Shown one piece after another: positions 3,886 to 62,012 of a stretch of 64,000 bases of DNA. The position numbers and the translations under genes are program-made. The notes below the pieces were generated by a model. It searched no databases. It was not told where the DNA came from and saw only the letters and a list, made by a program, of their open reading frames with translations. This DNA comes from Minisyncoccia bacterium. GTDB lineage: Bacteria; Patescibacteriota; Minisyncoccia; Phycocordibacterales; Phycocordibacteraceae. The stretch is from NCBI GenBank assembly GCA_050011835.1, contig JBEKII010000002.1, positions 76,173-140,172 of the forward strand, in the 5' to 3' direction. Position 1 is the first letter of the stretch, and the number at the start of each line of letters is the position of its first letter.

Positions 3886-3912
3886 AGTATCGTCGTGGTA
3901 TTATTCTCGCAT

Positions 3913-4986: not shown

Positions 4987-5049
4987 TTAAGACGTTTTGC
5001 ACAGATGCTATAAACGGTTCTTGCGCGGGTATCGTATACTAAAGACGAA

Positions 5050-5625: not shown

Positions 5626-6185
5626 ACAATCACATTCTTCCCACGCTCGCGCTCCTCATTGCCATCGGCATATTTTTTACTTATGTAAATCCCACATGGT
5701 CCGGTCCAATAGCGACGGCAAAGGCCGCTATCGCGAGTGATGGCCAGGCGCTTGCTGCCGCGAGCCAATACGCTGCACAACAAAACGAACTTGCTTCCGC
5801 CCGCAATGCGATTGCCCCCGCGGATATCGCGCGGCTCACCACGTTTTTGCCTGATTCGGTAAACAATGTCGGACTCATTCTTGATTTGAATGCGCTTGCC
5901 GCACGCTCCGGGATCTCGCTCTCCAACGTTAATATCACTGTAAATGCAAATAACGCAGGCGCCGCAAGTTCCGCCACCGGAGCTCTTCCGGTTTCCGGTG
6001 CGAGTCCAGTAGGTTCGGCTGATTTTTCTCTTTCCGCAAAAGGCACGTATACGGCGTTCCTGGCGTTTCTTGCCGGGATAGAGAAGAGCGAGCGCCTTCT
6101 CGATGTTCGTGACATTACCGTGGAGGGGTCCGATACGGGCGTCTACACATACCAAATGACACTGCGCCTTTACTGGCTGCAGTAA
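5622..6185 (+). CDS. pilO: PilO-like pilus assembly protein
   Basis: 187 aa with an N-terminal TM helix. Its start overlaps the pilN stop by 4 nt. Confidence 0.5.
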   Translation: MNNHILPTLALLIAIGIFFTYVNPTWSGPIATAKAAIASDGQALAAASQYAAQQNELASARNAIAPADIARLTTFLPDSVNNVGLILDLNALAARSGISLSNVNITVNANNAGAASSATGALPVSGASPVGSADFSLSAKGTYTAFLAFLAGIEKSERLLDVRDITVEGSDTGVYTYQMTLRLYWLQ

Positions 6186-6198
6186 GCGATTTTATATT

Positions 6199-6492
6199 AT
6201 GAAATCAAAAAATCTCGTACTCATTATCGTCATCGTACTCATCGCTGCAGCCGGCGTTTACTGGTATTTCTTTACCGGAACGGGGAATCAGCCCACTCTC
6301 TTAATTGGAGGGACGGAGAACCAAGCACAAGCCCAGTTTGAGACGCTGGTCAGCGAGCTGACGCCGATTTCGTTTGATACCAGCATCTTTTCGGACTCGC
6401 GTTTCAATGCGCTCGTTGATATTTCAACGCCGATCACTCCGGAACCCATCAGCCGTCCCGATCCTTTTGCAGTCATTGCTAGCGTAGATTGA
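6199..6492 (+). CDS. Small single-TM protein in the pilus operon (PilP-like accessory?)
   Basis: 97 aa, N-terminal TM helix. Sits between pilO and pilB. Confidence 0.35.
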   Translation: MKSKNLVLIIVIVLIAAAGVYWYFFTGTGNQPTLLIGGTENQAQAQFETLVSELTPISFDTSIFSDSRFNALVDISTPITPEPISRPDPFAVIASVD

Positions 6493-6501
6493 AATTGAGT
6501 A

Positions 6502-8292: not shown

Positions 8293-8321
8293 CGTAAGAA
8301 TGCGCTATACTCATTGATAAA

Positions 8322-8753
8322 ATGTCCTATCACATCTATATCGTTGACGATGATAAATTTCTTCTCGACCTTTATGCGGTCAAGTTTGAGAATGCCGGTC
8401 ATAAGGTGAGCATGTTTGGTAGCGGCGAGGATTTCCTGGCGACTCTTCGGAAAACAGATGCGCCGCCGCCCGATGCCATTCTTCTTGACCTTATTATGCC
8501 GGGCATCGGTGGTTTCGGAGCTCTTGAGGCGATGCGGAAAGAGAATCTCGCGCGGGGCGCAAAGGTTATTATTCTCTCAAATCAGGGCCGGGACTCTGAC
8601 ATAGAAAAAGCGAAGCAGCTTACCGCCGATGGTTATATTATAAAGGCATCCGCGATTCCTTCCGAGGTAGTTGCCGAGACCTTGCGCATTATTAATGCGG
8701 ATCACGCCGCCGTTGCCACTGGTGAAGTGACCAATGAAGAAAATCACTCGTAA
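8322..8753 (+). CDS. Single-domain response regulator (CheY-like receiver)
   Basis: 143 aa. IYIVDDD...LDLIMPGIGGF receiver signature with no output domain. Confidence 0.75.
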   Translation: MSYHIYIVDDDKFLLDLYAVKFENAGHKVSMFGSGEDFLATLRKTDAPPPDAILLDLIMPGIGGFGALEAMRKENLARGAKVIILSNQGRDSDIEKAKQLTADGYIIKASAIPSEVVAETLRIINADHAAVATGEVTNEENHS

Positions 8754-8755
8754 TT

Positions 8756-9826
8756 ATGACCATGATTGCCGATAAGCGTCTCGAGGAACTTCTTGATATC
8801 GTCGTCGCGGAAAATGGTTCAGACCTGCATATTTATGCCGGCGGACCGCCAGTGCTTCGCGTTGCAAGCGCACTCGTCTCGGTCTCGAAATATCCAACAT
8901 TCTCTAATGAAGAGACCGAGGCGATGCTCAAAAGTATCGTGCCTGAAGGTCGCTGGGGCTCATTTAAAGAAAATCAGACCATTGATATTTCCTACGCACA
9001 CAAGAAAACGAATACGCGTTTCCGCGTCAATGGTTATTACGTACAAGGAACAGTCGCTCTCGCGCTCCGCCTCATTCCCCCCGCGGTTCAAACATTCGCA
9101 GAGTTGAATTTGCCCCCCATACTTGAGGTATTCACGCAACGCAAGCAAGGATTCTTCCTTGTCGTGGGGCCGGTGGGGCAGGGTAAGTCAACCACGCTTG
9201 CCGCTATGGTTGACAACATTAACAATTCGCGCACTGAACACATTCTTACCATTGAAGACCCGGTTGAGTATGTCTTTACGCCGAAGAAGTCGCTTATTCA
9301 TCAGCGTGAGGTCCATATCGATACTCCCGATTTCCGCACAGCGTTGGAAAGCTCATTTCGTGAAGACGTGGACGTTATCATGGTCGGTGAGATGCGCGAC
9401 CACGATACTATTTCTTCGGCGGTGACCGCCGCAGAGACCGGCCACCTCATTTTCTCCACGCTCCACACCAACAACGCTGCGCAAACCATTGACCGTATTA
9501 TCGATATGTTTCCTGCCGAGCAGCAAAACCAGGTGCGCGTACAGTTAGCTGGCTCGCTGGCAGGCATCTTTTCCCAACGGCTTATTCCGCGTATTTCGGG
9601 CGGACTCATTCCGGCTTATGAACTTCTCATTAATAACAATGCGGTCAGTACGCTTATCCGGGATTCAATGACTCACGAGATTGACACAGTGATTCAAACA
9701 TCTTCGCAGGAAGGCATGATTGACATAAATCGTTCGCTCGCCGAGCTCGTCAAGCGGGGAGAAGTGACGATTGAACACGCCTACGAGCGCGCTTTGGATT
9801 CCAAGACCTTTGAACGGTACCTCTAA
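8756..9826 (+). CDS. pilT: Twitching-motility (retraction) ATPase PilT
   Basis: 356 aa. Walker A GPVGQGKSTTL. PilT-length hexameric ATPase. Confidence 0.9.
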   Translation: MTMIADKRLEELLDIVVAENGSDLHIYAGGPPVLRVASALVSVSKYPTFSNEETEAMLKSIVPEGRWGSFKENQTIDISYAHKKTNTRFRVNGYYVQGTVALALRLIPPAVQTFAELNLPPILEVFTQRKQGFFLVVGPVGQGKSTTLAAMVDNINNSRTEHILTIEDPVEYVFTPKKSLIHQREVHIDTPDFRTALESSFREDVDVIMVGEMRDHDTISSAVTAAETGHLIFSTLHTNNAAQTIDRIIDMFPAEQQNQVRVQLAGSLAGIFSQRLIPRISGGLIPAYELLINNNAVSTLIRDSMTHEIDTVIQTSSQEGMIDINRSLAELVKRGEVTIEHAYERALDSKTFERYL

Positions 9827-9838
9827 ATCTATTTATTT

Positions 9839-11044
9839 ATGCTCTTCAAATATCACGCGATTGACCAGGACGGACACGGGCGGGGGGGAACCATTGAAGC
9901 TCTTTCGCAGGAAGTCGCTGTTTCTTCGCTCCAGCGGCGCAATCTCATCATCTCGTCGATTGAATCCGTAGAGAAACATTCGTTCCTTAATTTTAATATT
10001 CCATTCATTGGTAGAGTGTCCAACAAGGATATCGTTATTCTCTCGCGTCAGATAGCGACCTTGTTTGAGGCACAGGTATCTGCGCTCCGTGTCTTTCGTC
10101 TTCTCGCTTCCGAGGTTGACAATAAGCAGCTCGCCACCATTCTCTCAACGATCGGCGATGATCTCCAGGGCGGAAGTCCAATCAGTAAAGCACTTTTACG
10201 CCATCCGAAGGTCTTTTCAGCATTTTATGTGAATATGGTTCGCGCGGGAGAGGAATCCGGCAAATTATCGGAGACATTTGTATATCTCGCCGATTATCTC
10301 GACCGTTCGTATGACGTTATGAGCAAGGCGGAAAATGCGCTTATTTACCCGATTTTTGTCGTCGTGGTCTTCTTTGTCGTCATGGCGCTTATGTTGACGC
10401 TCGTTATACCGAAAATCAGCGCGGTTTTGGTTGATTCCGGCCAAGCGGTACCGATTTATACCTCTATTATCATCGGTTTTTCAAACTTTCTCGTCCACTA
10501 TAGTATTTTTATTCTTGCCGCACTTATCGCGGGCGGCTTTTATGTATGGCAGTTAAGGAAGACCGAACACGGGAAACTCATTCTTGATCGTCTAAAGCTC
10601 TCGGTGCCGTATGTCGGCGACCTATATAAAAAACTGTATCTCTCGCGTATCGCGGACAATTTCTCCACAATGCTTCATTCTGGAGTTTCGGTTGTTGAGG
10701 CGATAGATATCACTGGCTCCGTTGTGGGTAATGCCGCGTACGCGGCCGTGCTTGCAGAGGTCGGGAAGGAAGTAAAAGGAGGTTCTTCCATATCCGACGC
10801 CCTTGCACGGCATCCGGAAATTCCCGGTATTATGGTCGCGATGACGAAGGTCGGCGAAGAAACAGGCGAACTCTGGAATATCCTTACCACACTCGCCAAA
10901 TTCTATAATCGCGAAGTGGCGAATGCCGTGGATACGTTGGTTGGTCTTATTGAGCCGATTACGATCGTGATTCTTGGTCTCGGTGTCGGCATACTCGTCG
11001 CCGCGGTGCTTCTTCCCATCTATAATCTTGCCAGTGCGATCTAG
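9839..11044 (+). CDS. pilC: Type IV pilus platform protein PilC (GspF family)
   Basis: 401 aa. Two T2SS_F repeats and multiple TM helices. Confidence 0.85.
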   Translation: MLFKYHAIDQDGHGRGGTIEALSQEVAVSSLQRRNLIISSIESVEKHSFLNFNIPFIGRVSNKDIVILSRQIATLFEAQVSALRVFRLLASEVDNKQLATILSTIGDDLQGGSPISKALLRHPKVFSAFYVNMVRAGEESGKLSETFVYLADYLDRSYDVMSKAENALIYPIFVVVVFFVVMALMLTLVIPKISAVLVDSGQAVPIYTSIIIGFSNFLVHYSIFILAALIAGGFYVWQLRKTEHGKLILDRLKLSVPYVGDLYKKLYLSRIADNFSTMLHSGVSVVEAIDITGSVVGNAAYAAVLAEVGKEVKGGSSISDALARHPEIPGIMVAMTKVGEETGELWNILTTLAKFYNREVANAVDTLVGLIEPITIVILGLGVGILVAAVLLPIYNLASAI

Positions 11045-11122
11045 GCGGAGTTTATCCACACCCTTGTTTTTAGCCATAAAATATGGGTATACAATCTAGT
11101 CATTAACCGAATATAATTAATT

Positions 11123-11599
11123 ATGTACAACAATCGTTTCCGGGGCTTCACTCTTATAGAATTACTCGTCGTAATCGCCATCATCGGCATCCTTTCGGCG
11201 GTCGTGCTCGCGTCCTTGAATACCGCTCGTTCTAAGGGCAATGACGCAGCCATCCAATTGGACCTTGCGACCATTCAGACCCAGGCGGAAATTTATTATG
11301 GGAATAATTCGAACAAGTACAACTCGGACGGTACGACTGGCGTTGCTGGTATCGCTTGCCCGGGAGTCGGTACCGCCACGCTCTTTGGCGATACGACCAT
11401 CGCGAATGCAATCAATGGCGTAAAGACTGCCAGCAGCGGTAACGTTGCATATTGCTATGCGGCTGCCAATGGGTCTGCCTATGCTGTTCAGGCGCCACTG
11501 AAGACCAATTCATCACTTTATTGGTGCGTTGACAGTACCGGGGTTGCTTCCTCAACCGCTGTTCAATTCTCCGGCGCTACGACTAAGTGCGGTACATAG
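11123..11599 (+). CDS. pilA: Type IV pilin (prepilin), paralog 1
   Basis: N-terminal RGFTLIELLVVIAIIGILSAVVLASLNTARSKGNDAAIQ, the class III signal and methylation motif. C-terminal Cys pair. Confidence 0.85.
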   Translation: MYNNRFRGFTLIELLVVIAIIGILSAVVLASLNTARSKGNDAAIQLDLATIQTQAEIYYGNNSNKYNSDGTTGVAGIACPGVGTATLFGDTTIANAINGVKTASSGNVAYCYAAANGSAYAVQAPLKTNSSLYWCVDSTGVASSTAVQFSGATTKCGT

Positions 11600-11613
11600 T
11601 TTTAACCGTGTAA

Positions 11614-12156
11614 TTGAATATGATTCCTATTCGCTTTCGCGGCTTCACCCTTATTGAATTACTCGTCGTAATCGCCATCATCGGCATCCTCTCGGCGGTC
11701 GTGCTCGCGTCCTTGAATACTGCCCGCTCAAAGGGTAACGATGCGGCTATCCAGTCCGACCTCAACACCGTTCAAACTGAAGCCGAAATAGCGTATGGCG
11801 GAGGCGGTACAGCAGGTCTCACCAATACGTACAATTCCACTGGCTCGGCCGTCTCGAGCTCCGCCTGTTCTGGAGTTACGACAGCAGGAACTATTTTCGC
11901 AGACACGACAATTCAGAACGCATTGAAGGGCGCAAAGAGCGCCGCAGGAGGCAGCAACGACAGCGACTGCGGCATTACCAGTACTGGTGGTGCGTATTCC
12001 ATTGCGGCGCCACTTGTGTCAGGTAAGGCGTGGTGCATTGACTCAACGGGTGTGGCTCGCGGTGCAACAGTTAACGGTCTCCCATATACAGCACTCATAG
12101 GTACGGTTGCAGCCGGTGGTGCCCATATCACAAGTGGGCAAACAACCTGCAATTGA
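11614..12156 (+). CDS. pilA: Type IV pilin, paralog 2
   Basis: Same N-terminal ~40 aa. The first ~90 nt of DNA are nearly identical to paralog 1. Confidence 0.85.
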   Translation: MNMIPIRFRGFTLIELLVVIAIIGILSAVVLASLNTARSKGNDAAIQSDLNTVQTEAEIAYGGGGTAGLTNTYNSTGSAVSSSACSGVTTAGTIFADTTIQNALKGAKSAAGGSNDSDCGITSTGGAYSIAAPLVSGKAWCIDSTGVARGATVNGLPYTALIGTVAAGGAHITSGQTTCN

Positions 12157-12198
12157 ATTAGCCCATAAATCAGAAGCTCTCTTCTGGTTAGAGGAAAA

Positions 12199-12237
12199 GA
12201 AATCCACTGTTCCTAACTGTGGATTTCTTTTTTTTGG
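12199..12237 (+). terminator. Rho-independent terminator between pilin 2 and pilin 3
   Basis: aaatccactgt-tcctaa-ctgtggattt followed by a T9 run. Confidence 0.55.
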
Positions 12238-12255
12238 TGTTATACCTATAAGCAT

Positions 12256-12765
12256 ATGAATCCAAAAAATAAGAACCAGGGCTTCACCCTTATTGAATTA
12301 CTCGTCGTAATCGCCATCATCGGCATCCTCTCGGCGGTCGTGCTCGCGTCCTTGAACACCGCTCGTTCTAAGGGTGGCGATGCTGCAATTCAGTCCGATC
12401 TCAATACAATCCGGATAGAAGCAGAGATTTTCTATGGGAGCAACACTAATTCCTATAACACGGGCTCAACCCTCGCATACAGTAATTGTTCAACGCATAC
12501 AGATGCTGGTTCAATTCTCGCTGACACAACCATCCAAAACGCCCTTAAAGGTGCAAAAAATACTTCAGGCAGTGATAGCGACTGCGGTATAACTTCTACA
12601 GCGTATTCCATTGCGGCGCCACTTGTGTCAGGTAAGGCGTGGTGCATTGACTCAACGGGTGTGGCTCGCAATTCAACCGCCAACGGTCTCCCATATACAG
12701 CACTCATAGGTACGGTTGCAGCCGGTGGTGCCCATATCACAAGTGGGCAAACAACCTGCAATTAA
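12256..12765 (+). CDS. pilA: Type IV pilin, paralog 3
   Basis: Same prepilin N-terminus. The C-terminal ~60 aa are nearly identical to paralog 2 (AYSIAAPLVSGKAWCIDSTGVAR...GQTTCN). Confidence 0.85.
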   Translation: MNPKNKNQGFTLIELLVVIAIIGILSAVVLASLNTARSKGGDAAIQSDLNTIRIEAEIFYGSNTNSYNTGSTLAYSNCSTHTDAGSILADTTIQNALKGAKNTSGSDSDCGITSTAYSIAAPLVSGKAWCIDSTGVARNSTANGLPYTALIGTVAAGGAHITSGQTTCN

Positions 12766-12791
12766 TTTAATAATAGTTTAATATAAATATT

Positions 12792-13250
12792 ATGATATAT
12801 AAATATAACAATCGCGCTTTCACCCTTATTGAATTACTCGTCGTAATCGCCATCATCGGCATCCTCTCGGCGGTCGTGCTCGCATCGCTGAATGCCGCTC
12901 GCTCAAAAGGCAGTGATGCGGCTATTCAGTCAGATCTGGATGGCATCCGAACACAAGCCCAGATCTATTACGGCAATAATGGCAGCAGTTACGGTTCGAA
13001 TGCCGCTGTAGAAAGCAATTGTAGCGCGACCGATAATATGTTCAGCGACCCAACAATCACAAAACAAGTGCAAGGAGCAGATACGGCAAATGGTCCCTCC
13101 GGTTCTGTAGTGTGCAACGTAGCTGCCTCTGGTACGGCTTATGCGGTGTCAGCAGACCTTGTCGCGACACCCGGAACGTATTATTGCGTTGACAGTACCG
13201 GCGTGAGCACGACAACGACAACGGCTCTGGACACCAACACAAATTGCTAA
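12792..13250 (+). CDS. pilA: Type IV pilin, paralog 4
   Basis: Same prepilin N-terminus, with a divergent C-terminal domain. Confidence 0.85.
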   Translation: MIYKYNNRAFTLIELLVVIAIIGILSAVVLASLNAARSKGSDAAIQSDLDGIRTQAQIYYGNNGSSYGSNAAVESNCSATDNMFSDPTITKQVQGADTANGPSGSVVCNVAASGTAYAVSADLVATPGTYYCVDSTGVSTTTTTALDTNTNC

Positions 13251-13294
13251 TTAAAAATATTTTCAAGTGACGCGACTCCGCTCCAGGCGGGATT

Positions 13295-14083
13295 GTGTTA
13301 CGTTATACTAATTCCTACATGATTCTCCTGCCGGTCGCACTGCTGTTCATTCTTGGTGCCATTGTCGCGAGTTTTGTCGGAGTACTCGTTGCGCGACTCA
13401 ATACCGGTCAAGGATTTCTTACAGGGCGCTCTCATTGTGATGCGTGCAATGCACCGCTTGCGCCATCTGCGCTCATACCGGTTATTTCCTATATTGTCTC
13501 TAGCGGACGCGCACGTTGTTGCGGTGCGCATCTTTCGTGGCATGCGCCACTTTCCGAGTTCTTGCTCGGCGGACTCTTCGCGCTTTCATATCTAAAACTC
13601 GGCCTTTCAGGCACATTGGTATGGATGCTCCTTTCGCTTTCAGTCCTCCTTGCGCTCACTCTTTATGACCTTGCGCATCAGATACTGCCGCCCGTGCTTC
13701 TCGCGCCATTTGTCGCAGTGAGCGCTGTAACTGGATTTCTTCTTGCGCCGTCTCTCTCACTATTTTTGAGCACTCTCTTTATCGCTTTTCTTATCGCGCT
13801 CTTTCTCGCGTTCATTCATTTTTTTTCGCGTGGCCGTTATATGGGTCTTGCAGATGCGCCATTTGCTTTCGGCCTCTCACTTCTCGCCGGACCGTTCGCA
13901 TTCCCCGGTTTCGTTTTTTCATTCTGGATCGGTGCCGTTGTCGGGATAATTATATTGTACAAGAGACCTCGTGGCTCTAGAATGGGAGTTGAGGTACCGT
14001 TCGCGCCTTTTCTGGCCGCCGGTTTCCTTCTCGCTTATTTTATTCAATGGAATCCATTCGTCTTCGTCGCGGCTTTACACTGA
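13295..14083 (+). CDS. pilD: Prepilin peptidase PilD (A24 family)
   Basis: Tetracysteine motif CDACNAP...CCGAH and polytopic membrane topology. Start could instead be at 13319. Confidence 0.8.
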   Translation: MLRYTNSYMILLPVALLFILGAIVASFVGVLVARLNTGQGFLTGRSHCDACNAPLAPSALIPVISYIVSSGRARCCGAHLSWHAPLSEFLLGGLFALSYLKLGLSGTLVWMLLSLSVLLALTLYDLAHQILPPVLLAPFVAVSAVTGFLLAPSLSLFLSTLFIAFLIALFLAFIHFFSRGRYMGLADAPFAFGLSLLAGPFAFPGFVFSFWIGAVVGIIILYKRPRGSRMGVEVPFAPFLAAGFLLAYFIQWNPFVFVAALH

Positions 14084-14709
14084 TCGAGCTTATGGTCGTG
14101 GTGGCGATCATCGGTATCGTTTCGTTAATCGTGTTGACCAACCAGAGCACATTTAATAAAACGCTCATTCTCCAGAACACCGCGTACGATATCGCGCTTA
14201 CGCTCCGCGATGCCGAGACCTATGGTCTTGGAAGTCGCGCCATTGGCATAACCGCGAATGCGGGATATGGTGTTCACTTTCAAAACGCGCCAACCACGTC
14301 TTTCATTCTTTTTGCCGATACTTATCCCTCAACTCCGAGTGCGTCCAATTGCCATGGAGTGCCGATTGACGGTGCAAGCGCGCCAGACGCGCAGCCCGGC
14401 GACTGCATCTATACGTCGAGCCAAGATCAAAAAATAAATGCTTATACACTCGGGAATGGAATCACGGTGAGTGATTTCTGCGTATTCAACGGCAGTTGGT
14501 CGTGCGCGCAGAACAATGGGTTGACTTCGCTCGACATCGTTTTCGCGCGCCCGAATCCGGCTACGTTCATAAGCGTGAACGGTTCGTATTCGGCGGCACC
14601 CGCTGTAACTGCGGCATGTCTCACCGTGAGCGCATCCGAAGGAGGTAAGCGCTTTGTTTCGGTCGCGTCGTCAGGAGAGATAACTGCGAATGCTACTTCA
14701 TGCCCATGA
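14047..14709 (+). CDS. Minor pilin / pseudopilin
   Basis: RRGFTLIELMVVVAIIGIV prepilin N-terminus. Overlaps the pilD 3' end. Confidence 0.65.
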   Translation: MESIRLRRGFTLIELMVVVAIIGIVSLIVLTNQSTFNKTLILQNTAYDIALTLRDAETYGLGSRAIGITANAGYGVHFQNAPTTSFILFADTYPSTPSASNCHGVPIDGASAPDAQPGDCIYTSSQDQKINAYTLGNGITVSDFCVFNGSWSCAQNNGLTSLDIVFARPNPATFISVNGSYSAAPAVTAACLTVSASEGGKRFVSVASSGEITANATSCP

Positions 14710-15914
14710 CACTGAAAATCAGAGGATATACGCTTGTGGAACTTATTGTCGCGGTCGGGCTTTTCGCGCTCATTATGACGCTCACAGCCGGCGCCTATAT
14801 TATCGTTATAGGTCTGACTGCACGGGCACAGGGCACTGCTTCCAGCATAGATAATCTCTCCTTCGCACTCGAAACGATGACGCGCAATATTCGAACGGGT
14901 ACTGGATACAATTGCGGCGGTTTGGGTGATTGCTCGAGCGGTTCCAGCAACTTTTCTTTCAGGAATGCACAGGGAACGGCGACGAGTTACTCGCTCTCGA
15001 ACGGAGTTATTATGACGCAAAACACCATTCCCCTCACCGACCCTTCGGTGAAGGTCACTTCACTTATGTTTTATGCGTCCGGCACCAAGACCAGCGACAA
15101 CTATCAACCTAACGTTACCATTGTCGTTTCGGGCACGGTTTCGTCCGGCCGGGGGACGACCCAATCCTTTTCCGTAGAAACGGGAGCGACAATGCGCGGA
15201 TCCGATATCGCCGGTATTGTCAGCAGCGGCGGCTCTGTAATCTATACCGCTGGGCAATCAGGCAATTGGACTGTGCCATCGGGAGTAACTTCTGTCATCG
15301 TAACGATGTGGGGCGGTGGGGGATCGGGAAGTTCTTACGCTGGCGGCGGCGGAGGCGGTGCAGGAGTTATTTATCAGTATCCTCTTACCGTAACTCCAGG
15401 TCAAATTTCTTACGCGGTAGGCTATGGAGGAGCGGCAGTTACAGGACAGGTTGACGGGAATGATGGACAACAGACCACTTTTGGTTCCTTAATCGCGTCT
15501 CCCGGATTAAGGGGACATAACTATAATACCCCAACAGATCGTGGCTATGGAGGTCGCGGAGGTAATGCCTCAGATAGCACTAACACAGGCACAGGTGGAC
15601 TCTGGGGTTATTCCGCCCATTACGCTGGTTACGACGGAAGTTCATACCCCACTACTTTATTTGGAGGGGGTGGAGGTGGTTATGGTGGTTACGCGGGAGG
15701 TGACGATGGCGTAGGCGGTGCTAGTTATAGCAATACTCATGCGGCTGCCGGAGCCACAATTGGAGGTGGAGGTGGAGCAAGTTACGGAACAGGCGGTGCT
15801 GGAAGTAATACCATTGCGAGTGCGGGAACAGATGGCGGCGGCGGCGGCGGATCGTGGACGGGTTCTTATTATTCTGGTGCTGGTGGTGACGGGAAGATAA
15901 TCATAAGCTGGTAA
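14700..15914 (+). CDS. Large minor pilin with a Gly-rich C-terminal domain
   Basis: RGYTLVELIVAVGLFALIM prepilin-like N-terminus. The C-terminal 200 aa are GGGGSG/GGYGGY-rich. Confidence 0.6.
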   Translation: MPMTLKIRGYTLVELIVAVGLFALIMTLTAGAYIIVIGLTARAQGTASSIDNLSFALETMTRNIRTGTGYNCGGLGDCSSGSSNFSFRNAQGTATSYSLSNGVIMTQNTIPLTDPSVKVTSLMFYASGTKTSDNYQPNVTIVVSGTVSSGRGTTQSFSVETGATMRGSDIAGIVSSGGSVIYTAGQSGNWTVPSGVTSVIVTMWGGGGSGSSYAGGGGGGAGVIYQYPLTVTPGQISYAVGYGGAAVTGQVDGNDGQQTTFGSLIASPGLRGHNYNTPTDRGYGGRGGNASDSTNTGTGGLWGYSAHYAGYDGSSYPTTLFGGGGGGYGGYAGGDDGVGGASYSNTHAAAGATIGGGGGASYGTGGAGSNTIASAGTDGGGGGGSWTGSYYSGAGGDGKIIISW

Positions 15915-15918
15915 AAAT

Positions 15919-16497
15919 ATGACTACAAAAGGATTCACCCTCATCGAGACCATGGTTGCCATCACGATTCTCACTGTCGCGATTGCGGGAGCTTTTTTTA
16001 CCGCGAATAGTTCACTCGTCGCTGCAGAAATTGCGCGCGACCAACTTACCGCTTCCTACCTCGCGCAAGAGGGCATCGAGTATGTGCGCATGATGCGCGA
16101 TGACGAATATCTCAAGGCTTATCAGGTAGGCGGCACGAACGTTTCGACTACCGCGTGGAATAATTTCTTAAATGGGTCTGATGCCGCATCGATTACCCAG
16201 TGTCGCGGTACGATAAGCAGTCCGATAACCTGTACGCTTGACCCATCGCGCTCTATGGGCTCGGGAAGTGGTTCTTCGCTTCAGCCCTGTTCTGGTTCTG
16301 CGTGTATACCACTCTATCTAGCGAGCACGGGCATTTATAACGAGCAAAGTTCAGGAACGAAAACATCTTTCACGCGCACCATACAAGCAGTCGATATTTC
16401 CGCGAGCGATGAACGTATTGTCTCAAAAGTGTCATGGAGTTTCCATGGCATCTCGCATTCGGTAACTATCACCGACCATCTCACGCCATGGCAATGA
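15919..16497 (+). CDS. Minor pilin / pseudopilin
   Basis: MTTKGFTLIETMVAITILTVAIAG prepilin N-terminus. Confidence 0.65.
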   Translation: MTTKGFTLIETMVAITILTVAIAGAFFTANSSLVAAEIARDQLTASYLAQEGIEYVRMMRDDEYLKAYQVGGTNVSTTAWNNFLNGSDAASITQCRGTISSPITCTLDPSRSMGSGSGSSLQPCSGSACIPLYLASTGIYNEQSSGTKTSFTRTIQAVDISASDERIVSKVSWSFHGISHSVTITDHLTPWQ

Positions 16498-17009
16498 AAA
16501 ATAAAAACCAGAAAGGTTTCGCACTTCTCGTCGCCGTCATCTTTATGTCGGTGATGCTTACACTTGGTCTTGCGCTCGCTTCCCTCGGCTATAAACAGGA
16601 ACTTCTCGCGTCAACGGCCATTGAATCGCAGTATGCATTTTATGCCGCCGATGCCGGTCTTGAGTGCGCTCTCTATGCTGATCAACAACTGGACTTATTT
16701 GATTATGCTTCGCATAGTGTGGCCACTCCTCCTAATACAATTACCTGCGATGGCGTATCGGCGACGCAATTACCTGGAAGTTATTCATATACTACTGGCA
16801 CCAATGGCACACTATCTGTCTCCGAACGTCTCTCGCTCGATTCAAACACACACTGCGCAATTGTAACGATTTATAAATACAGTACACCGCAGTCGCCAAC
16901 AAATTTTGTTACCTACCTTTTCTCCCAGGGCTTCGACGTTCCCTGCACTACCGTGGCGAATCCGGGAGGAACGCGCTTTGTATCGCGGGGTATCAGCGCC
17001 CATTATTAA
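16488..17009 (+). CDS. PilX-like minor pilin
   Basis: MAMKNKNQKGFALLVAVIFMSVMLTLGLALA. The start is placed at the internal Met so it does not overlap the preceding gene. Confidence 0.5.
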   Translation: MAMKNKNQKGFALLVAVIFMSVMLTLGLALASLGYKQELLASTAIESQYAFYAADAGLECALYADQQLDLFDYASHSVATPPNTITCDGVSATQLPGSYSYTTGTNGTLSVSERLSLDSNTHCAIVTIYKYSTPQSPTNFVTYLFSQGFDVPCTTVANPGGTRFVSRGISAHY

Positions 17010-21632: not shown

Positions 21633-22715
<1,083 letters not shown>

Positions 22716-22717
22716 GT

Positions 22718-23068
22718 ATGAATGATGCCGATATTCCGATTCTGAAGAAAGCATATGATTTGTATCTCACCTTTCACACGTATCGGCGTGTCGTGCCCAA
22801 AGCCGAGCGATTCACCCTCTACGAACGTTGTGAGAACGCAATTCTCGATATGGTCGAAGCGATTCTTGAAGCCGGATACTCGAAGAGCGCACAGAAGATG
22901 ACAGTGCTCGAACGTGCAAGCGTGAAGCTCAATATCATTCGCTTTTTCATCCGCCTTTTGAAGGAAACTCGTTCCATCGATACGAAGAAATATGTGAAGC
23001 TCCAAGAAATGATTGATGAGATCGGTAGAATGCTCGGCGGATGGATACGATCGACGGATTCTCGATAA
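22718..23068 (+). CDS. avd: DGR accessory variability determinant (Avd; four-helix-bundle family)
   Basis: 116 aa. C-terminus EIGRMLGGWIRS resembles the Bordetella phage bAvd EVGRILGSWIAR. Placed adjacent to the RT. Confidence 0.75.
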   Translation: MNDADIPILKKAYDLYLTFHTYRRVVPKAERFTLYERCENAILDMVEAILEAGYSKSAQKMTVLERASVKLNIIRFFIRLLKETRSIDTKKYVKLQEMIDEIGRMLGGWIRSTDSR

Positions 23069-38026: not shown

Positions 38027-38664
38027 ACGGTTTTGTAGCGTCGCTGTTGTCGTTCCTATTGCTCTATAAATATTGGGCGCTCTTCGTCGTTATGTTCACT
38101 GCTGCTATTATCCTGCCGCTCCCGACGAACAGCATGCTTCTTGCGGCGGGTGCCTTTGCGAGCCAGGGATACTTTAGTTTCTCGCTCTCGTTCGTCGTTG
38201 CCGTTGTCGCAAGTATTTTTGGAGATTGCCTCGATTACTTTTTAGCCCGCAGATACGGGCGCCACATACTCGAAATGCTTCACCTGCGCATACCTTCTTA
38301 TATTGAGCGGCTTGAACACTACGTGAGGAGACATTCAGGACCGACGATATTTTTTACGCGGTTTGCAGGTACTGCCGATTCGTTGGCGAATCTTCTTTCC
38401 GGATTCATCGGCATGTCGTTTGGAACATTTATTGCATATGATTTTCTTGGCAACGCCGCCTCTATAGGCGGCGTGCTGTATTCCGGTTATTTTCTCGGCA
38501 GCTACTGGCAAAGTTTCTCGGAACTTTTCAATATCGCGGGATGGATATTTCTTGGATTTATCGTTATGGCCGCTTTAGCGGTGACTGTGTGGTACAGAAA
38601 CCACACCAGAGGCGAGACGGCCTCTAGAAGAATCCGAACAGATGAGAGAAGAATCCGCCAATAG
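38023..38664 (+). CDS. DedA/TVP38-family membrane protein
   Basis: 213 aa. DedA-like topology and motifs (GDCLDYFLARRYGR). Confidence 0.65.
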   Translation: MNGFVASLLSFLLLYKYWALFVVMFTAAIILPLPTNSMLLAAGAFASQGYFSFSLSFVVAVVASIFGDCLDYFLARRYGRHILEMLHLRIPSYIERLEHYVRRHSGPTIFFTRFAGTADSLANLLSGFIGMSFGTFIAYDFLGNAASIGGVLYSGYFLGSYWQSFSELFNIAGWIFLGFIVMAALAVTVWYRNHTRGETASRRIRTDERRIRQ

Positions 38665-39631
38665 CGTTAAGGACACCGCGATGCACTGGGGGATTGGAGC
38701 CCGTTGAATTATTCGGAGAGCTTGGAGAGGTTCCTTGATCAATGATAGACGAAGCGGTTACTGACGTACCGTTTACGGTGCCCTGCACAACGACGTTATC
38801 TCCTACGACGACGTTTGAAATCGTCGCTCCCATCGTCGTGACACCCGCTTTTGATACCTTTGCGGAAGAGGCATCCACGGTGTACGTGACGTTGCTCTTG
38901 TTCGTGACGGTAAGAGTTGAGCCGTTGATTGCGGTCATGTTACCGCCGATAACTGGCTGGCCGTTCCCTTGGATTGCCGGTGTCTGTCCCTGCGACATGC
39001 CGTCGCGAATGGTTTTCGCGGTTACCGATGTGCCGCTCACTGTTCCTTGCACCATTACTGTGTCGCCTGTCGCAATGTTTGACACGGATGAGTTTGCTCC
39101 GTTCTTAGTAACCGTGGCGTTGGATGCGTCTACTGTGTAGGTCGTCGCGGTCGCATTTTGTCTGAAGCCCTTGCTGGTTACGGTTAGCGTCGTACCGCTA
39201 ACCGAAGCGACGGTGCCGAAGACGCCGGGATTCATGCCCGTGTGCCCGCCCATCATCATTGAACCGTCACGGATTGCGGTTGCCGTAACGCTTGAACCGC
39301 TTACGGTTCCTTGAATCATCACGGTATCACCGACAGCGATAGCCGAGACGGACGAACTCGCTCCGTTCTTGGTGACGGTCGCGTTTGTTGCGTCAACCGT
39401 ATAAGGGGTCGAAGCCGTGCTACCGCGTTGCCAATTCTTAGAATTGACTGTGAGCGTGTTGCCAGAAATCGAAGTAACCATGCCGACAACTGCCGGACGC
39501 GACATAGCAGCACCACCATGACCGAATCCGCCCGTGCCTGCCGCAAGTGCAGTACCAACGAGAGCGAAAGAACCAATAAGTGCTGAACCGACGATAAGAG
39601 CTGATAAATTGCGTTTAGTAAGTTTGTGCAT
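38624..39631 (-). CDS. Secreted repeat protein with three ~80-aa tandem repeats and a C-terminal GxLNAIGGFFSHLFGFF motif
   Basis: Start at MHKLTKRN (signal peptide). Repeat unit TLTVxSK...TYTVDAxNATVTKNGAxSSVSxIAxGDTVMxQGTVSG. Confidence 0.55.
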   Translation of the reverse strand: MHKLTKRNLSALIVGSALIGSFALVGTALAAGTGGFGHGGAAMSRPAVVGMVTSISGNTLTVNSKNWQRGSTASTPYTVDATNATVTKNGASSSVSAIAVGDTVMIQGTVSGSSVTATAIRDGSMMMGGHTGMNPGVFGTVASVSGTTLTVTSKGFRQNATATTYTVDASNATVTKNGANSSVSNIATGDTVMVQGTVSGTSVTAKTIRDGMSQGQTPAIQGNGQPVIGGNMTAINGSTLTVTNKSNVTYTVDASSAKVSKAGVTTMGATISNVVVGDNVVVQGTVNGTSVTASSIIDQGTSPSSPNNSTGSNPPVHRGVLNAIGGFFSHLFGFF

Positions 39632-39734: not shown

Positions 39735-41753
39735 GTGAGTATGAAACGCACCTTTTCTTTAAATCTCGCCGCTTTATCCGTAAGTTTTTTTATTAGTCTT
39801 GCGCCCTCTGCTTTCGCCACGGTGCCGCCGACTCTCTCGCTCGCAGCAACTGGCAGCGGAGACAACGTTCAAATAACTATTACCGGCGACCCGAATGTGA
39901 GCGTTCTTCTCTCGTATACCGAAACCGGCTCTGGCCCGCAAATCACCTCGCTCGGTTCAACTGATTCAACGGGTTCTTTCTCAACAGTCGTGTCAAGCGC
40001 GACGTACGGCCTTACCTCCGGCACGCTCGTTACCGCGATTTTAAACGGCACCAGCGGGCCAAAGTCGCCGACCGTTGCGTGGCCAACGGTTAATTCTACG
40101 AATTCTCTTGCCTTGAGCCAGAATGCCGTCGTGCTCAACGCCGGTTCCTCAGCGAGCGTCACTGCGACGAATATCGGTTCTGGGGCATTGTATGTTTCCA
40201 ACAACTCAAATCCTTCAATCGCGAATGTAAGCGTCAGCGGAACCCAAGTCACTTTTTCGGGCAATACTGCCGGAGCGACGACGGTGACGCTTTGTCAGGT
40301 TGGTAACGCGACTAGCTGCCCGAGCGTGTATGTCACCGTGGAGCAGTCGGGAGCAGGACAACTCTCTTTCAGCCAAAATAACGTCTCGGTTGTCAACGGA
40401 CAAAATTTACCGATCACTATCAGCGGCGGCAACGGAGCGTATGAGATTACTTACAATTCAAACTCCAGTGTCATTCAGGCAAGTATTAGCGGTTCGGTAC
40501 TTACCTTGAGCACGGGCGCGTCAAGCGGTTCCTCTTCAATTACCGTCTGCTCTTCTGATATGGCGATGTGTGGTGTCGTCGTGGCTGTGGCGGGGAGCGC
40601 AAACTCCGTCGCGATTTCTTTCAGCAACGGCGCTCCTGTTCTTTCAACCAACCAGAGTATGACGATTAATATCTACGGACCATCAGGCGTGCAGTTCTAT
40701 GTTTCTTCCAATTCAAGCCCGAGCATTGTGCAGGCGAATCTCTCTGGCACGACACTCACGTTAACTGGTATCGCGGCGGGTTCATCGTCCATCTCCGTTT
40801 GCGCTTCAACGGGCACGTGCGCATCGCTTATCGCGACGGTTCAGTACGCCACGACCGGCGCGAACATTACGATTAGCCAAAACGCCCTTTCTCTTCTTGC
40901 GGGCCAAAACACCACGATAACCATTTCAGGCGGCGAACAACCTTATTTTGTCTCGGGCGGAACGAGCTCAATAGCGCAGGAGACCTTGAACGGTAGCACG
41001 CTCACGGTCTACGGCGTCGCGATTGGCACATCGTCATCAAATGTATGTTCGGCAGGTGGCGGTTGCGTGCCGCTTACCGTAACGGTGAACGGTTCGGGCA
41101 CAACCGCGGCATTCTCTATGAGCCAGAGCAATGTTTCGCTTGTCGTGGGCCAAATTTCAACAGTCACTTTGTACGGCAACGGCAATTATTATCTCTCTAG
41201 CAATACCGGACCGAGCGTCGCTTCGGTTACCATAAGCGGGCCAAGCGCGATTGTCTCCGGATTAAGCTCCGGGAGTACAAACGCTGCTATCTGCGAGAGT
41301 GGCGGTTCTTGCGCGACGCTTGTTGTGACAGTCAATAATACGGCGGCGCAAACATCACCGGCGCCGACCGCTATAGTGACGAATCCGCCGACTAGTACAT
41401 TCACAAAATATCTTGCGCCCGGCTCGGGAAACGCACAAGTGACCGTGCTTCAGCAGGCACTCGCGGCCCAAGGTTATTTCTCCGGCGCCGTCACAGGTTA
41501 CTACGGCGCGCAGACCAAAGCCGCTGTCATTAAATTTCAGACAGCGCATAGCATCAATCCGCTTGGCGTCGTCGGCCCTGCGACACGCACGGCGCTTAAT
41601 CAGCTTGGGAGTACGTCCGTGCCGAACACGAATAACATCTCAAACGTGGACATTACCACTATGACCCTGAGTCAGCTTCAGGCCGAAGTGCAATCACTTG
41701 AATCGCAACTCACTCAAGTTCTCAACCGCATCACGCAATTAACGGGGCAGTAG
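39735..41753 (+). CDS. Large secreted surface protein with repeated Cys-pair domains and a C-terminal PG-binding domain
   Basis: 672 aa. At least 6 repeats, each ending ...CxxGxCxxxxVTV. YFSGAVTGYYGAQTKAAVIKFQ PG_binding_1. C-terminal coiled coil. Confidence 0.6.
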   Translation: MSMKRTFSLNLAALSVSFFISLAPSAFATVPPTLSLAATGSGDNVQITITGDPNVSVLLSYTETGSGPQITSLGSTDSTGSFSTVVSSATYGLTSGTLVTAILNGTSGPKSPTVAWPTVNSTNSLALSQNAVVLNAGSSASVTATNIGSGALYVSNNSNPSIANVSVSGTQVTFSGNTAGATTVTLCQVGNATSCPSVYVTVEQSGAGQLSFSQNNVSVVNGQNLPITISGGNGAYEITYNSNSSVIQASISGSVLTLSTGASSGSSSITVCSSDMAMCGVVVAVAGSANSVAISFSNGAPVLSTNQSMTINIYGPSGVQFYVSSNSSPSIVQANLSGTTLTLTGIAAGSSSISVCASTGTCASLIATVQYATTGANITISQNALSLLAGQNTTITISGGEQPYFVSGGTSSIAQETLNGSTLTVYGVAIGTSSSNVCSAGGGCVPLTVTVNGSGTTAAFSMSQSNVSLVVGQISTVTLYGNGNYYLSSNTGPSVASVTISGPSAIVSGLSSGSTNAAICESGGSCATLVVTVNNTAAQTSPAPTAIVTNPPTSTFTKYLAPGSGNAQVTVLQQALAAQGYFSGAVTGYYGAQTKAAVIKFQTAHSINPLGVVGPATRTALNQLGSTSVPNTNNISNVDITTMTLSQLQAEVQSLESQLTQVLNRITQLTGQ

Positions 41754-59261: not shown

Positions 59262-62012
59262 ATGAAAAAGTATATCCTCGGTGCCATTTTCTCCTTCGGC
59301 GTTCTTGTCCCATCAACATTCGCTCAAGCAGCAATCCTCTCAAATTCGCAAATTCAATCAATCCTCTCGCTTCTTTCTTCATTTGGTGCAGACAGTGCAA
59401 CAATAGCGAATGTCCGATCGGTACTTGTTGGTGGCACATCGGCTCACACACTTTCTTCTTCAGGAACAACCCAAAACATCAAAAGTTATGATGTAGTTAT
59501 TTACGGAGGCACAAGTGCCGGAGTAACCGCAGCAGTAGAAGCCGCTAGAACGGGGGAAACCGTAGCCATCATAGAACCCAGCAATCATCTCGGCGGTATG
59601 ACGTCAAATGGGCTGGGAGCCACGGATATCGGTAACCTGCAAACTGTGGGCGGAATCGCAAAAGAATTTTATCAGGACGTTCTTTCTTATTATAACAATT
59701 CGGCTAATTGGCAGTACGGGCAAAATTTCGACGCCTACAAAAACTTAGCAGCGAATTTCGGATATGTCGGCACAGACACTATGATGAGTTTCGAACCGCA
59801 TGTCGCGGAAAATATCTTTAAGCAATTCATTCAAACCTACAACATACCCGTTTTCTACGGGCAGAGACTGAACCTTGATTCTGGCGTAACCAAAAGCGGC
59901 AGCACCATTACACAAATCGTCATGGAGTCGGGAATGATTTTTAAGGCTCAAATGTTTATTGATGCGTCGTATGAAGGTGACCTGATGGCGAAAGCAGGAG
60001 TGTCTTATACCGTTGGCCGGGAGTCAGATAGCATCTATGGGGAAACGCTTAATGGCGTGATTTTTAATCCAAACGGTCCCCATCAATTTGCATCTTCAGT
60101 TGACCCGTATGTTATTAAGGGCAATCCCTCGAGCGGTTTATTGCCGGGAATAAATTCAAATCCCGGGACGAGTGGCCAAGGCGACAATAAAGTACAGGCA
60201 TATAATTTCAGATTATGCACGACCGACGTGCCTCAAAATGCTATTCCCTGGTCTAAGCCGGCTGGATATGACCCCAGCAGATACGAATTGCTTTTGCGTT
60301 ATTTTGACTCCGGTTACGGCAGCAATGTGCAAAGCTCCGACTTTGGTTATAACCCAGGTACACCGTGGGCCTTTCTGCCTATGCCAAACCTCAAAACAGA
60401 TACAAATAACAACGGTCCCTTTTCTACTGACAACATTGGAATGAATTACGATTACCCCGATGGGGATTACACCACCAGAGAAAATATAATTCGCGACCAA
60501 ATTTCCTATCAGCAAGGCCTGTTTTGGACGCTCGCGACGAATCCGAGGGTTCCCCAAAATATCAGGAATGAAATAAATAAATGGGGGCTTTGCAAGGATG
60601 AATTTACCGATAACGGAGGATGGCCAGATCAAATATACGTACGAGAGGGAAGGAGAATGATATCGGATTATGTGATGACGGAAAGTAATTCCAATGGCAG
60701 TAGAAATGCTAGCGATTCCGTAGGGATGGGTTCGTATCCCATAGATTCCCATAATGTGCAGAGATATTTGACGAGCGGAGGAACAGTCCAGAACGAAGGC
60801 GACTTAGTTGGCCTGTCCGGTACGAACTTGGCCGCACCGTATCCCATAAGTTACCGCTCCATCGTTCCTAAAAAGCAAGAAGTAACAAATCTTTTGGACC
60901 CCGTCACTCTCTCGGCCAGCCATGTGGCGTATGGTTCAATGCGAACGGAACCCATATTGATGATTCTTGGCCAAAGTGCGGGAGCTGCCGCGTCTATCGC
61001 AATTGATGACAATGTGGCTGTCCAGAATGTTAACTACAATGAATTAAAACAACAGCTTGTTCATGATGGTCAAATATTAGGCACGGGAGGTCCTGCGGCT
61101 GCCGTTCACTGTCAAAGATGCAGCGTGAATAGTTCCTATCAATGGGTGAATTTTGATTCTACTGACTCCTCCTGCGCTTCAGTTGTTCCTTCTACCAATC
61201 CCGTAACAAGGACCTGCAATTGCAGTTGTCCGGGCAATGTGGGCAACTCTTATCCGCCGGATTGTAGTGCGCAATGCAAAGCGTGCACTGACACCACATG
61301 GTCTCCTGATCCTTCCACGGTTTGCTCTGGCCAATCCTTTACCCAAACGAGCAACTGCGGTACGACCAGAACAGCGGCAGGCACCGAAAATTGTGCGCCG
61401 GTATCTGTCCACTGTGGAAGATGCAGCACGGTGATGTCCTATCAGTGGGCGAGCTTTGATTCTACCGACCCCACCTGCGCCACGGTCGTTCCTTCCACCA
61501 ATCCGGTCACAAGAACCTGCAACTGCAGCTGCCCGGGCGGCTTAAGCAATACGCTCTACCCGCCGAATTGCAGCAGCCAGTGCACAGCACCCTCTGTCGT
61601 TAACGTTTCCGGAGTGTGGAACAAAACAGCGGGAACGGTTCAAAGTGTTTGGACATTGTCTCAGTCCGGATCTTCAGTCAGTGGAACCAGCAGTAGCGGA
61701 GCCACTATCACTTCAGGAAGTATCGGACCAGATGGACACTCTATCTCACTAACTTGGAGTAATGGGTACCGCTTTAACGCGACGGTTTCAAGCGATGGGA
61801 ATAGTATGAGCGGCACGCAGACCAATCCCGACGGTACTTCCGGCGGAACATGGTCAGCCACGAGATCTACGGCTAGCTTCCTTGGCGGCACCAAACAAAC
61901 AGCCAATGCGCTGGGCGCCTTGAACAGCTCGAGTGGCTCACAGCCAACGGCGCGAGGAGGCTTCCTCAACGCTGTCGGCGGATTCTTCTCTCGCCTTGTC
62001 GGGTCTTTCTAA
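59262..62012 (+). CDS. Large secreted protein with an FAD-dependent oxidoreductase-like domain, tandem Cys-rich repeats and a conserved C-terminal tail
   Basis: 916 aa. Signal peptide plus the conserved leader (AAILSNSQIQSILSLLSSFGADSAT). VVIYGGTSAGVTAAVEAA dinucleotide-binding motif. Two ~100-aa Cys-rich repeats. C-terminal GGFLNAVGGFFSRLVGSF. Confidence 0.6.
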   Translation: MKKYILGAIFSFGVLVPSTFAQAAILSNSQIQSILSLLSSFGADSATIANVRSVLVGGTSAHTLSSSGTTQNIKSYDVVIYGGTSAGVTAAVEAARTGETVAIIEPSNHLGGMTSNGLGATDIGNLQTVGGIAKEFYQDVLSYYNNSANWQYGQNFDAYKNLAANFGYVGTDTMMSFEPHVAENIFKQFIQTYNIPVFYGQRLNLDSGVTKSGSTITQIVMESGMIFKAQMFIDASYEGDLMAKAGVSYTVGRESDSIYGETLNGVIFNPNGPHQFASSVDPYVIKGNPSSGLLPGINSNPGTSGQGDNKVQAYNFRLCTTDVPQNAIPWSKPAGYDPSRYELLLRYFDSGYGSNVQSSDFGYNPGTPWAFLPMPNLKTDTNNNGPFSTDNIGMNYDYPDGDYTTRENIIRDQISYQQGLFWTLATNPRVPQNIRNEINKWGLCKDEFTDNGGWPDQIYVREGRRMISDYVMTESNSNGSRNASDSVGMGSYPIDSHNVQRYLTSGGTVQNEGDLVGLSGTNLAAPYPISYRSIVPKKQEVTNLLDPVTLSASHVAYGSMRTEPILMILGQSAGAAASIAIDDNVAVQNVNYNELKQQLVHDGQILGTGGPAAAVHCQRCSVNSSYQWVNFDSTDSSCASVVPSTNPVTRTCNCSCPGNVGNSYPPDCSAQCKACTDTTWSPDPSTVCSGQSFTQTSNCGTTRTAAGTENCAPVSVHCGRCSTVMSYQWASFDSTDPTCATVVPSTNPVTRTCNCSCPGGLSNTLYPPNCSSQCTAPSVVNVSGVWNKTAGTVQSVWTLSQSGSSVSGTSSSGATITSGSIGPDGHSISLTWSNGYRFNATVSSDGNSMSGTQTNPDGTSGGTWSATRSTASFLGGTKQTANALGALNSSSGSQPTARGGFLNAVGGFFSRLVGSF

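Follow-up and report, generated by a model that had tools for sequence, protein, structure and literature searches.

Known carboxyterminal sorting signals combine a motif with a transmembrane helix and a basic end, occur on many protein families per genome, and are served by a dedicated enzyme. In penicillin-binding protein 5 (PBP5) of Escherichia coli, the last 18 residues hold the protein at the outer face of the cytoplasmic membrane (PMC2909392). The present analysis concerns 64,000 nucleotides of DNA from an uncultured, ultra-small Minisyncoccia bacterium (GenBank assembly GCA_050011835.1, contig JBEKII010000002.1, positions 76,173 to 140,172 of the forward strand; hereafter, the window), in which two proteins with unrelated domains end in much the same Phe-rich tail of 17 residues: a 916-residue flavin adenine dinucleotide (FAD) oxidoreductase-like protein and a 335-residue protein built of DUF5666 domains. 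An earlier note on this DNA had proposed that the tail marks a dedicated sorting or anchoring system. The anchoring half of this proposal stands as the most likely function, whereas the dedicated sorting half is not supported. On balance, the tail probably works much as the PBP5 anchor does, as a self-sufficient, in-plane amphipathic helix that holds exported proteins to the outer face of the cell membrane; export, membrane binding and topology are inferred.

The tail of the FAD enzyme lies at 61950..62012 on the plus strand, where ARGGFLNAVGGFFSRLVGSF is followed by a TAA stop in frame with the open reading frame (ORF) at 59262-62012; its amphipathic core, GFLNAVGGFFSRLVGSF, spans 61959-62009 (plus strand), and the longer C-terminal end of the protein reads ...SQPTARGGFLNAVGGFFSRLVGSF. 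The tail of the DUF5666 protein lies at 38624..38683 on the minus strand (residues 317-335), where HRGVLNAIGGFFSHLFGFF is followed by a TAG stop, and the longer end of this protein reads ...NPPVHRGVLNAIGGFFSHLFGFF. Aligned without gaps, the two tails share 12 of their last 17 residues, and the likeness reported in the earlier note is thus real and in frame at the coordinates given. When every stop-to-stop ORF in the window that is 100 residues or longer (177 in number) was compared with every other at its end, a single pair of the 15,576 exceeded 12/17, two tandem pilin paralogues (11614-12156 and 12217-12765) whose last 17 residues are identical. With the tail pair and the pilin pair set aside, the best remaining pair reaches 6/17. 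At the DNA level, the likeness of the two tails is confined to a 49-nucleotide block (61963-62011 against 38625-38673) with 39 of 49 bases identical and an alignment score of 48, compared with 17 ± 2.3 (maximum 29) for shuffles, and it ends exactly at the end of the tail. Neither the window nor the 79.5 kb examined of the 170-kb source contig contains a third tail-bearing ORF.

The tails have the periodicity of an amphipathic α-helix. Averaged over 140 distinct tails, the hydrophobic-moment spectrum rises to a single sharp maximum at the α-helical period of 100 degrees. The moment there is 0.385, whereas shuffles give 0.178 ± 0.007, and on a second hydrophobicity scale the two figures are 0.585 and 0.223. 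At the β-strand angles of 160-180 degrees, the moment of these 140 tails (0.08-0.10) does not rise above background. Both copies in the window behave similarly: the FAD tail has a helical moment of 0.40, reached by 0.6% of its shuffles, with its peak at 90-100 degrees, and the DUF5666 tail one of 0.45, reached by 0.2%, the mean hydrophobicities of the two being 0.47 and 0.51. Columns occupied by Phe, Ile, Leu or Met fall at -7, -6, -3, 0, +1, +4, +5, +7 and +8, an i, i+3, i+4, i+7 pattern, and Gly or polar columns at -8, -5, -4, -1, +2, +3 and +6, with Gly enriched at -8, -5, -4, -2 and +6. AlphaFold2 (AF2) models, made of single chains, give both proteins the same arrangement of folded domains, a disordered linker and a terminal helix, which covers residues 901-913 of the FAD protein (predicted local distance difference test score, pLDDT, ~50) and residues 321-332 of the DUF5666 protein (pLDDT ~55). 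Both N-termini have, by inspection, a basic start, a hydrophobic core and AQA/ALA sites, so that the motif does sit, as the earlier note had it, at the extreme C-terminus of two proteins with export signals. The tail itself is not predicted to span the membrane, because its 19-residue Kyte-Doolittle maxima (0.68 for FAD, 0.88 for DUF5666) are well under the transmembrane range, as compared with maxima of 1.73 and 2.06 in the N-terminal signal peptides of the same two proteins.

The 335-residue protein (38624..39631, minus strand), predicted to be exported, starts with a Met codon at 39631 (MHKLTKRNL...) and a signal-peptide-like N-terminus, MHKLTKRNLSALIVGSALIGSFALVGTALA by inspection. What had been described as a repeat protein is assigned to DUF5666 by a Pfam match (PF18914) that covers two stretches and scores 51.6 bits, where the cut-off is 27. 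Its three domains, at residues 47-122 (39266-39493), 136-210 (39002-39226) and 227-301 (38729-38953), all on the minus strand, are modelled by AF2 at pLDDT above 90 as β-barrels that resemble the oligonucleotide/oligosaccharide-binding (OB) fold, the best matches being the OB-folds of S1, cold-shock and CusF proteins. A disordered Ser/Pro/Asn linker (residues 302-316) precedes the tail. The protein has 1,479 homologues at E ≤ 0.001, and the tail is C-terminal in 118 of 120 among the matches listed. Tailed homologues are 50-66% identical to the window protein, and those with a named source come from Paceibacterota, Parcubacteria, Doudnabacteria or Minisyncoccia. Their tails follow the consensus G-[FMVI]-[FML]-G-[GAS]-I-G-[GNS]-F-F-[KHSQ]-[HNRK]-L-F-G-F-(F), or, in the shorter form drawn from the 118, G-[FM]-[FM]-G-G-I-G-x-F-F-[KHSQ]-H-L-F-G-F-(F), with the C-terminal peptide ...IGGFFSHLFGFF; a basic residue and a Gly often stand just before it. 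Across 59 aligned homologues, F332 never varies, and F327, F328, G333 and F334 hardly ever do. Column counts in 154 tails are 153 for F(+5), 147 for G(+6), 148 for F(+7) and 99 for H(+3). The tail profile also weakly matches the PGVFGTVxxI that opens each DUF5666 repeat (window 38729-39493); it is possible that the tail originated as the first strand of a repeat that was cut short.

Beyond the homologues, a profile built from 44 tails was run exhaustively against 1.84 billion representative proteins (E ≤ 0.001), and gave 48 matches. With six exceptions, these are DUF5666 proteins whose extreme C-terminus is the motif. The six comprise a fragment of the window's own FAD protein; P0262, which has the appearance of a decayed DUF5666 protein; P0248; and three unrelated repeat proteins, one of them fungal. 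P0248 (JGI, 254 residues) is a DUF5666 protein with two copies of the motif, one internal (PGFFGKVGHFFSNLFGGGDKNN...) and one C-terminal. Because of this internal copy, the motif is apparently not strictly tied to a free C-terminus, unless P0248 is a mis-joined gene. The fungal protein (P0268, Tephrocybe sp. KAG6844169.1) looks secreted and repeats SIFGKIGGFFKH[LM][VI]GF four times internally, with RRE after every copy and ER before three of them; in its layout, it resembles a precursor of repeated, processed amphipathic peptides. DNA-pattern scans, which are independent of protein family and are samples rather than censuses, matched at least 119 loci in GTDB genomes and at least 120 in metagenomes, mostly by chance or in T-rich low-complexity DNA. 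Among the matches listed, 6 tails in GTDB genomes and 14 in metagenomes are genuine, and all 20 are on DUF5666 proteins. As a negative control, viral contigs were scanned for the DNA pattern of GGFFxxLxGxF followed by a stop, and all 20 matches were chance ones (TGG in place of the stop, or ORFs that were too short). A 44-residue tail alignment searched against an index of 5.8 billion proteins, a word index unsuited to short motifs, returned one candidate, a fragment of a DUF5666 homologue. Because 118 of 120 homologues carry it and genuine tails occur almost only on DUF5666 proteins, the tail is, by its distribution, the hallmark C-terminus of this family. The window FAD enzyme is the single clear carrier outside it, an unrelated enzyme onto which the tail was grafted in what, on these data, was a one-off event.

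Similar ends do occur elsewhere. GGFFxxLFGGF directly before the stop is found on signal-peptide-bearing YcbB-type L,D-transpeptidases of Alphaproteobacteria. One of these (L130, 640 residues, with Scaffold, PG_binding_1 and YkuD domains and a signal peptide) ends in ...KGLGGFFNDLFGGF and another (L045, Hyphomicrobium, with a YkuD-type SHGC motif and no Pfam match) in ...KGGGFFDQLFGGF, each at its stop; an Adhesin_E-like protein of Syntrophus (L086) ends in ...GGFFGWLKGLF, likewise at the stop. These ends give the impression of C-terminal amphipathic anchors that arose convergently on periplasmic proteins. Within the library searched, literature searches on DUF5666, the motif strings and surface anchoring in the Candidate Phyla Radiation (CPR) returned nothing on the tail or on a role of DUF5666 in CPR. 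An amphipathic C-terminal anchor would be of a kind already known, in the form of a motif that appears undescribed.

The second carrier (59262..62012, plus strand) is a 916-residue multidomain protein, predicted to be exported and deposited as MGD0328525.1, "FAD-dependent oxidoreductase [Minisyncoccia bacterium]". It begins with a signal peptide at about residues 1-23 (MKKYILGAIFSFGVLVPSTFAQA, by inspection), followed by an FAD_oxidored domain at residues 77-599 (59490-61058; PF12831, E = 1.6e-105) that substantiates the earlier label of oxidoreductase-like. Two Cys-rich repeats at about residues 616-775 (61107-61586), of some 75 residues each and of the form HC(Q/G)RCS...TRTCNCSCPG..., match no Pfam family. 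They are followed by a small β domain at about residues 797-867 (61650-61862), as modelled by AF2, and by a Ser/Gly-rich linker, disordered in the same model, that leads into the tail. Most of the best homologues are enzymes of the Planctomycetota type, with an identity of 50-58% that is limited to the FAD domain, and with Planctomycetota (Fimbriiglobus, Pirellulales, Rhodopirellula) as the named sources of the FAD-domain relatives. None of the 120 best ends in this tail, which rules out its inheritance from the FAD family. A single close CPR orthologue, P0124, is 76% identical and keeps both the FAD domain and the Cys-rich repeats, which occur in it many times over; a similar linker then leads into another kind of tail, basic and amphipathic-looking, ...GVANVLKTAQGVVNKILRFFKGR. 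The Planctomycetota-like FAD domain and the presence of only one close CPR orthologue suggest horizontal acquisition of the enzyme, with the CPR-type Cys-rich repeats and the anchor added later. When the FAD tail is compared with other tails, the resident DUF5666 tail ties for the best match (12/17); the FAD copy deviates at two near-invariant positions, with F to V at +5 and F to S at +7. Because the orthologue uses a different, amphipathic-looking tail, the requirement for a tail of this type seems physicochemical and not sequence-specific.

As an in-plane anchor, the tail would form an α-helix of about 17 residues after a flexible linker rich in Ser, Thr, Gly and Asn, often with a basic residue and a Gly in between. 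The protein would first be exported by Sec and its N-terminal signal peptide then removed, and the helix would come to rest parallel to the cytoplasmic membrane, within the outer leaflet. The broad face of Phe, Ile, Leu and Met on this helix would be buried in the bilayer interface, and its narrow face of Gly, Asn, Ser, Lys and His turned toward the water. The motif would have arisen as the standard C-terminus of the DUF5666 surface proteins of Paceibacteria/Minisyncoccia, with a diverged copy ending the horizontally acquired FAD oxidoreductase of this genome as well, and because of this second carrier, the tail can be thought of as a portable anchoring module. In favor of the anchor count the helical periodicity, the hydrophobicity below the transmembrane level, the linker and terminal helix in both models, the substitute tail of P0124 and the GGFFxxLFGGF look-alikes, and also the lack of a sorting enzyme nearby (in the 79.5 kb) and of any match to a sorting-signal model.

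Several observations weigh against this notion. Export of both proteins is itself a prediction made from inspection of the N-termini and from hydropathy. The terminal helices in the AF2 models are of low confidence (pLDDT 50-55), and abundant Gly disfavors a helix in water, yet is common in helices induced by membranes. The helical moment of the P0124 tail did not exceed that of its own shuffles, and the FAD copy, given its deviations at +5 and +7, might be a weaker or decaying one. Above all, no other stretch of the DUF5666 protein is conserved as strongly as its tail. FFxHLFGF is conserved more tightly than generic lipid binding needs, hinting at a specific partner or geometry, and this leaves room for such a partner, for oligomerization mediated by the Gly face, or for an activity on membranes.

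This tight conservation bears on the proposal of a true sorting or attachment signal, in which a wall or surface-layer transpeptidase, a protease or a receptor recognizes ...FFxHLFGF(F)-COOH and cleaves, attaches or docks the protein. The extreme end is very highly conserved across homologues that are just 50-66% identical overall, it is strictly C-terminal in about 150 proteins, and it recurs on a second, unrelated exported protein of the same genome with 12/17 identity to the resident tail. What is found around the motif, however, differs from what accompanies known sorting signals. The ends ...VGSF and ...FGFF have no transmembrane-grade segment and no basic end, with neither Arg nor Lys after the motif. 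No LPXTG-like motif is present in the last 45 residues of either protein by direct reading, and NCBIfam scans (E ≤ 10) found no sorting-domain model in the full proteins and no model whatever in tail fragments of 48-50 residues, in agreement with the earlier statement that the tail is neither LPXTG nor PEP-CTERM. Instead of a repertoire of substrates in many families, there are two tailed proteins in the 79.5 kb and essentially one protein family, DUF5666, in the databases. No sortase, exosortase, rhomboid or CPBP gene was found in the same 79.5 kb; the neighborhoods of tail-bearing genes in three other genomes have no enzyme in common, and no candidate is conserved beside four other loci. The internal copy in P0248 has further sequence after it, and the orthologue P0124 of the FAD enzyme has a different tail. 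A LemA-HtpX pair follows the FAD gene; as processing machinery it is ruled out, since it is absent from all five DUF5666 loci examined. The lack of a transmembrane segment, basic end, model match, family spread and nearby enzyme points against dedicated machinery, and the dedicated system with a processing enzyme put forward in the earlier note is not supported. That note had taken a motif confined to these two proteins, with no associated machinery, as the outcome that would speak against its proposal; this is nearly what was found in this genome fragment, although across genomes the tail is widespread in one family. A sorting or attachment signal is thus unlikely.

Rather unlikely, too, is a module for helix-helix association or membrane insertion, which would oligomerize the OB-fold stalks or enter another membrane, for example that of an episymbiosis host, possibly after cleavage at the preceding basic residue. 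Gly, Ala or Ser residues at i, i+4 and i+8 provide a small-residue face of the glycine-zipper kind, and the Gly enrichment at -8, -5, -4, -2 and +6, the likeness to membrane-active amphipathic peptides, the four internal copies in the precursor-like fungal P0268, and the basic residue and Gly that often precede the tail are all consistent with this idea. A simple in-plane anchor, however, predicts the same features.

A further proposal makes the tail more than a passive anchor, namely a lineage-specific and sequence-specific surface module of Paceibacteria/Minisyncoccia, either a tag for an attachment or processing factor, or a Phe-rich, Gly-faced helix on an OB stalk that would enter the membrane of a partner cell in episymbiosis. 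A specific interaction would be expected to keep FFxHLFGF nearly invariant, as it is here, in a family whose members otherwise share only 50-66% identity. This version is improbable; a specific CPR module for surface attachment or for the host membrane would, if true, be considerably more interesting.

Very improbable is the possibility that the FAD tail has no function and is a by-product of recombination in which the FAD gene acquired the 3' end of a DUF5666 gene, with the first strand of a truncated repeat as a possible source of the tail. The restriction of DNA similarity to 49 nucleotides, the use of one and the same codon in 8 of 11 cases where the two tails have an identical residue, the changes at two near-invariant positions, the occurrence of the fusion in one genome only, and the weak match of the tail profile to the PGVFGTVxxI repeat start are all consistent with such an accident. 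Against it, the FAD copy is still read in frame, still follows a linker and a basic residue with Gly, and still has amphipathic periodicity; β-strand periodicity is absent; and the orthologue P0124 also has an amphipathic-looking tail at its C-terminus. The kept features and the tail of the orthologue argue that such a tail is selected for in the FAD enzyme. Of the remaining candidates, a β-strand or donor-strand element, prompted by the weak repeat-start matches, is ruled out by the lack of β periodicity; an outer-membrane β-signal with C-terminal Phe by the moment of 0.08-0.10 at 160-180 degrees and the soluble folds of the passengers; and this β-signal and the signals of type I and type IX secretion systems by the N-terminal signal peptide and soluble domains.

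The gene content of the window fits Minisyncoccia (CPR/Patescibacteria), with a type IV pilus cluster, a diversity-generating retroelement, RecG, FtsH and LemA-HtpX, and the 170-kb source contig is also present in the JGI metagenome 3300037993. The pilus cluster is complete (3877-17009, plus strand), comprising PilM, a PilO-like protein, PilB, PilT, PilC, several N-methyl pilins, PilX_N and an A24 prepilin peptidase, and according to the gene calls, a response-regulator gene lies between the two pilus ATPase genes. The core of the retroelement (21633-23068) consists of a reverse transcriptase, RVT_1 (21633-22754, minus strand), and an adjoining bAvd accessory gene (about 22718-23068, plus strand). 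A free-standing ORF resembling a LAGLIDADG homing endonuclease (2480-3481, minus strand) encodes a protein found in identical form on five different contigs. Genes for a tyrosine integrase, HTH_17 and Prim-Pol lie by GroES/GroEL 2.3-6.5 kb upstream of the window start (L268 15802-19981), a group that looks like a small integrated mobile element. Divergently adjoining the DUF5666 gene is the gene for a large, secreted protein with immunoglobulin (Ig)-like repeats and PG_binding_1 (39735-41753, plus strand), and a similar peptidoglycan-binding Ig-repeat neighbor stands beside the DUF5666 gene in another Minisyncoccia contig (L143 35-1840); it is possible that this neighbor is a functional partner of the DUF5666 protein at the cell wall.

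CPR/Patescibacteria are almost wholly uncultured, and how they retain proteins at their surface is poorly known. If the anchor is real, a portable, enzyme-free device would explain how the very widespread DUF5666 surface family is kept on the cell, and would provide a cheap annotation rule for surface-tethered proteins in CPR genomes. The one-off graft on the FAD oxidoreductase would then illustrate how a secreted enzyme of foreign origin can be fitted to a cell presumed to have no outer membrane. It would also serve as a warning that not every conserved C-terminal motif is a signal of the sortase type.

Compared with known systems, the tail resembles the tripartite signals of sortases, exosortases, rhombosortases and archaeosortases (LPXTG, PEP-CTERM, GlyGly-CTERM, PGF-CTERM) in being a short C-terminal motif on signal-peptide-bearing surface proteins with a low-complexity linker before it. 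Unlike these, it has no transmembrane helix, no Arg/Lys cluster and no spread over many families, and no cognate enzyme was seen. The membrane-targeting sequences of MinD (...KKGFLKRLFGG) and FtsA are likewise short, terminal amphipathic helices, with a GF(L/F)xxLFG-like core as in the tail. They differ in that they act at the cytoplasmic face, are more cationic and are far less hydrophobic, with a mean hydrophobicity of about -0.1, whereas the proteins described here have export signals. A C-terminal in-plane amphipathic helix is also the membrane anchor of the pestivirus glycoprotein Erns, according to two reports (PMC3937272, PMC4536213). The Erns helix is much longer than the tail, of viral/eukaryotic origin and unrelated in sequence. 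The tail is most like the anchors of the E. coli proteins PBP5/DacA, PBP6 and DacD, which similarly combine an export signal with a C-terminal amphipathic helix of 17-20 residues. The tail profile has no match in the PDB, and thus no sequence homology to PBP5. The passenger domains of the PBP5 group are other ones, and here the polar face is rich in Gly, conservation is far tighter, and a single membrane is presumed. Nevertheless, the PBP5 anchor and the window tails are both rich in Phe and His, and the tails, like that anchor, would need no processing enzyme, the membrane tether being a predicted one in the present case, and their physical properties are close: the moment and hydrophobicity are 0.40-0.45 and about 0.5 for the window tails, and 0.43 and 0.38 for the PBP5 anchor, the sequence of which was checked to be the exact C-terminus of PDB chain 6ntz_A.

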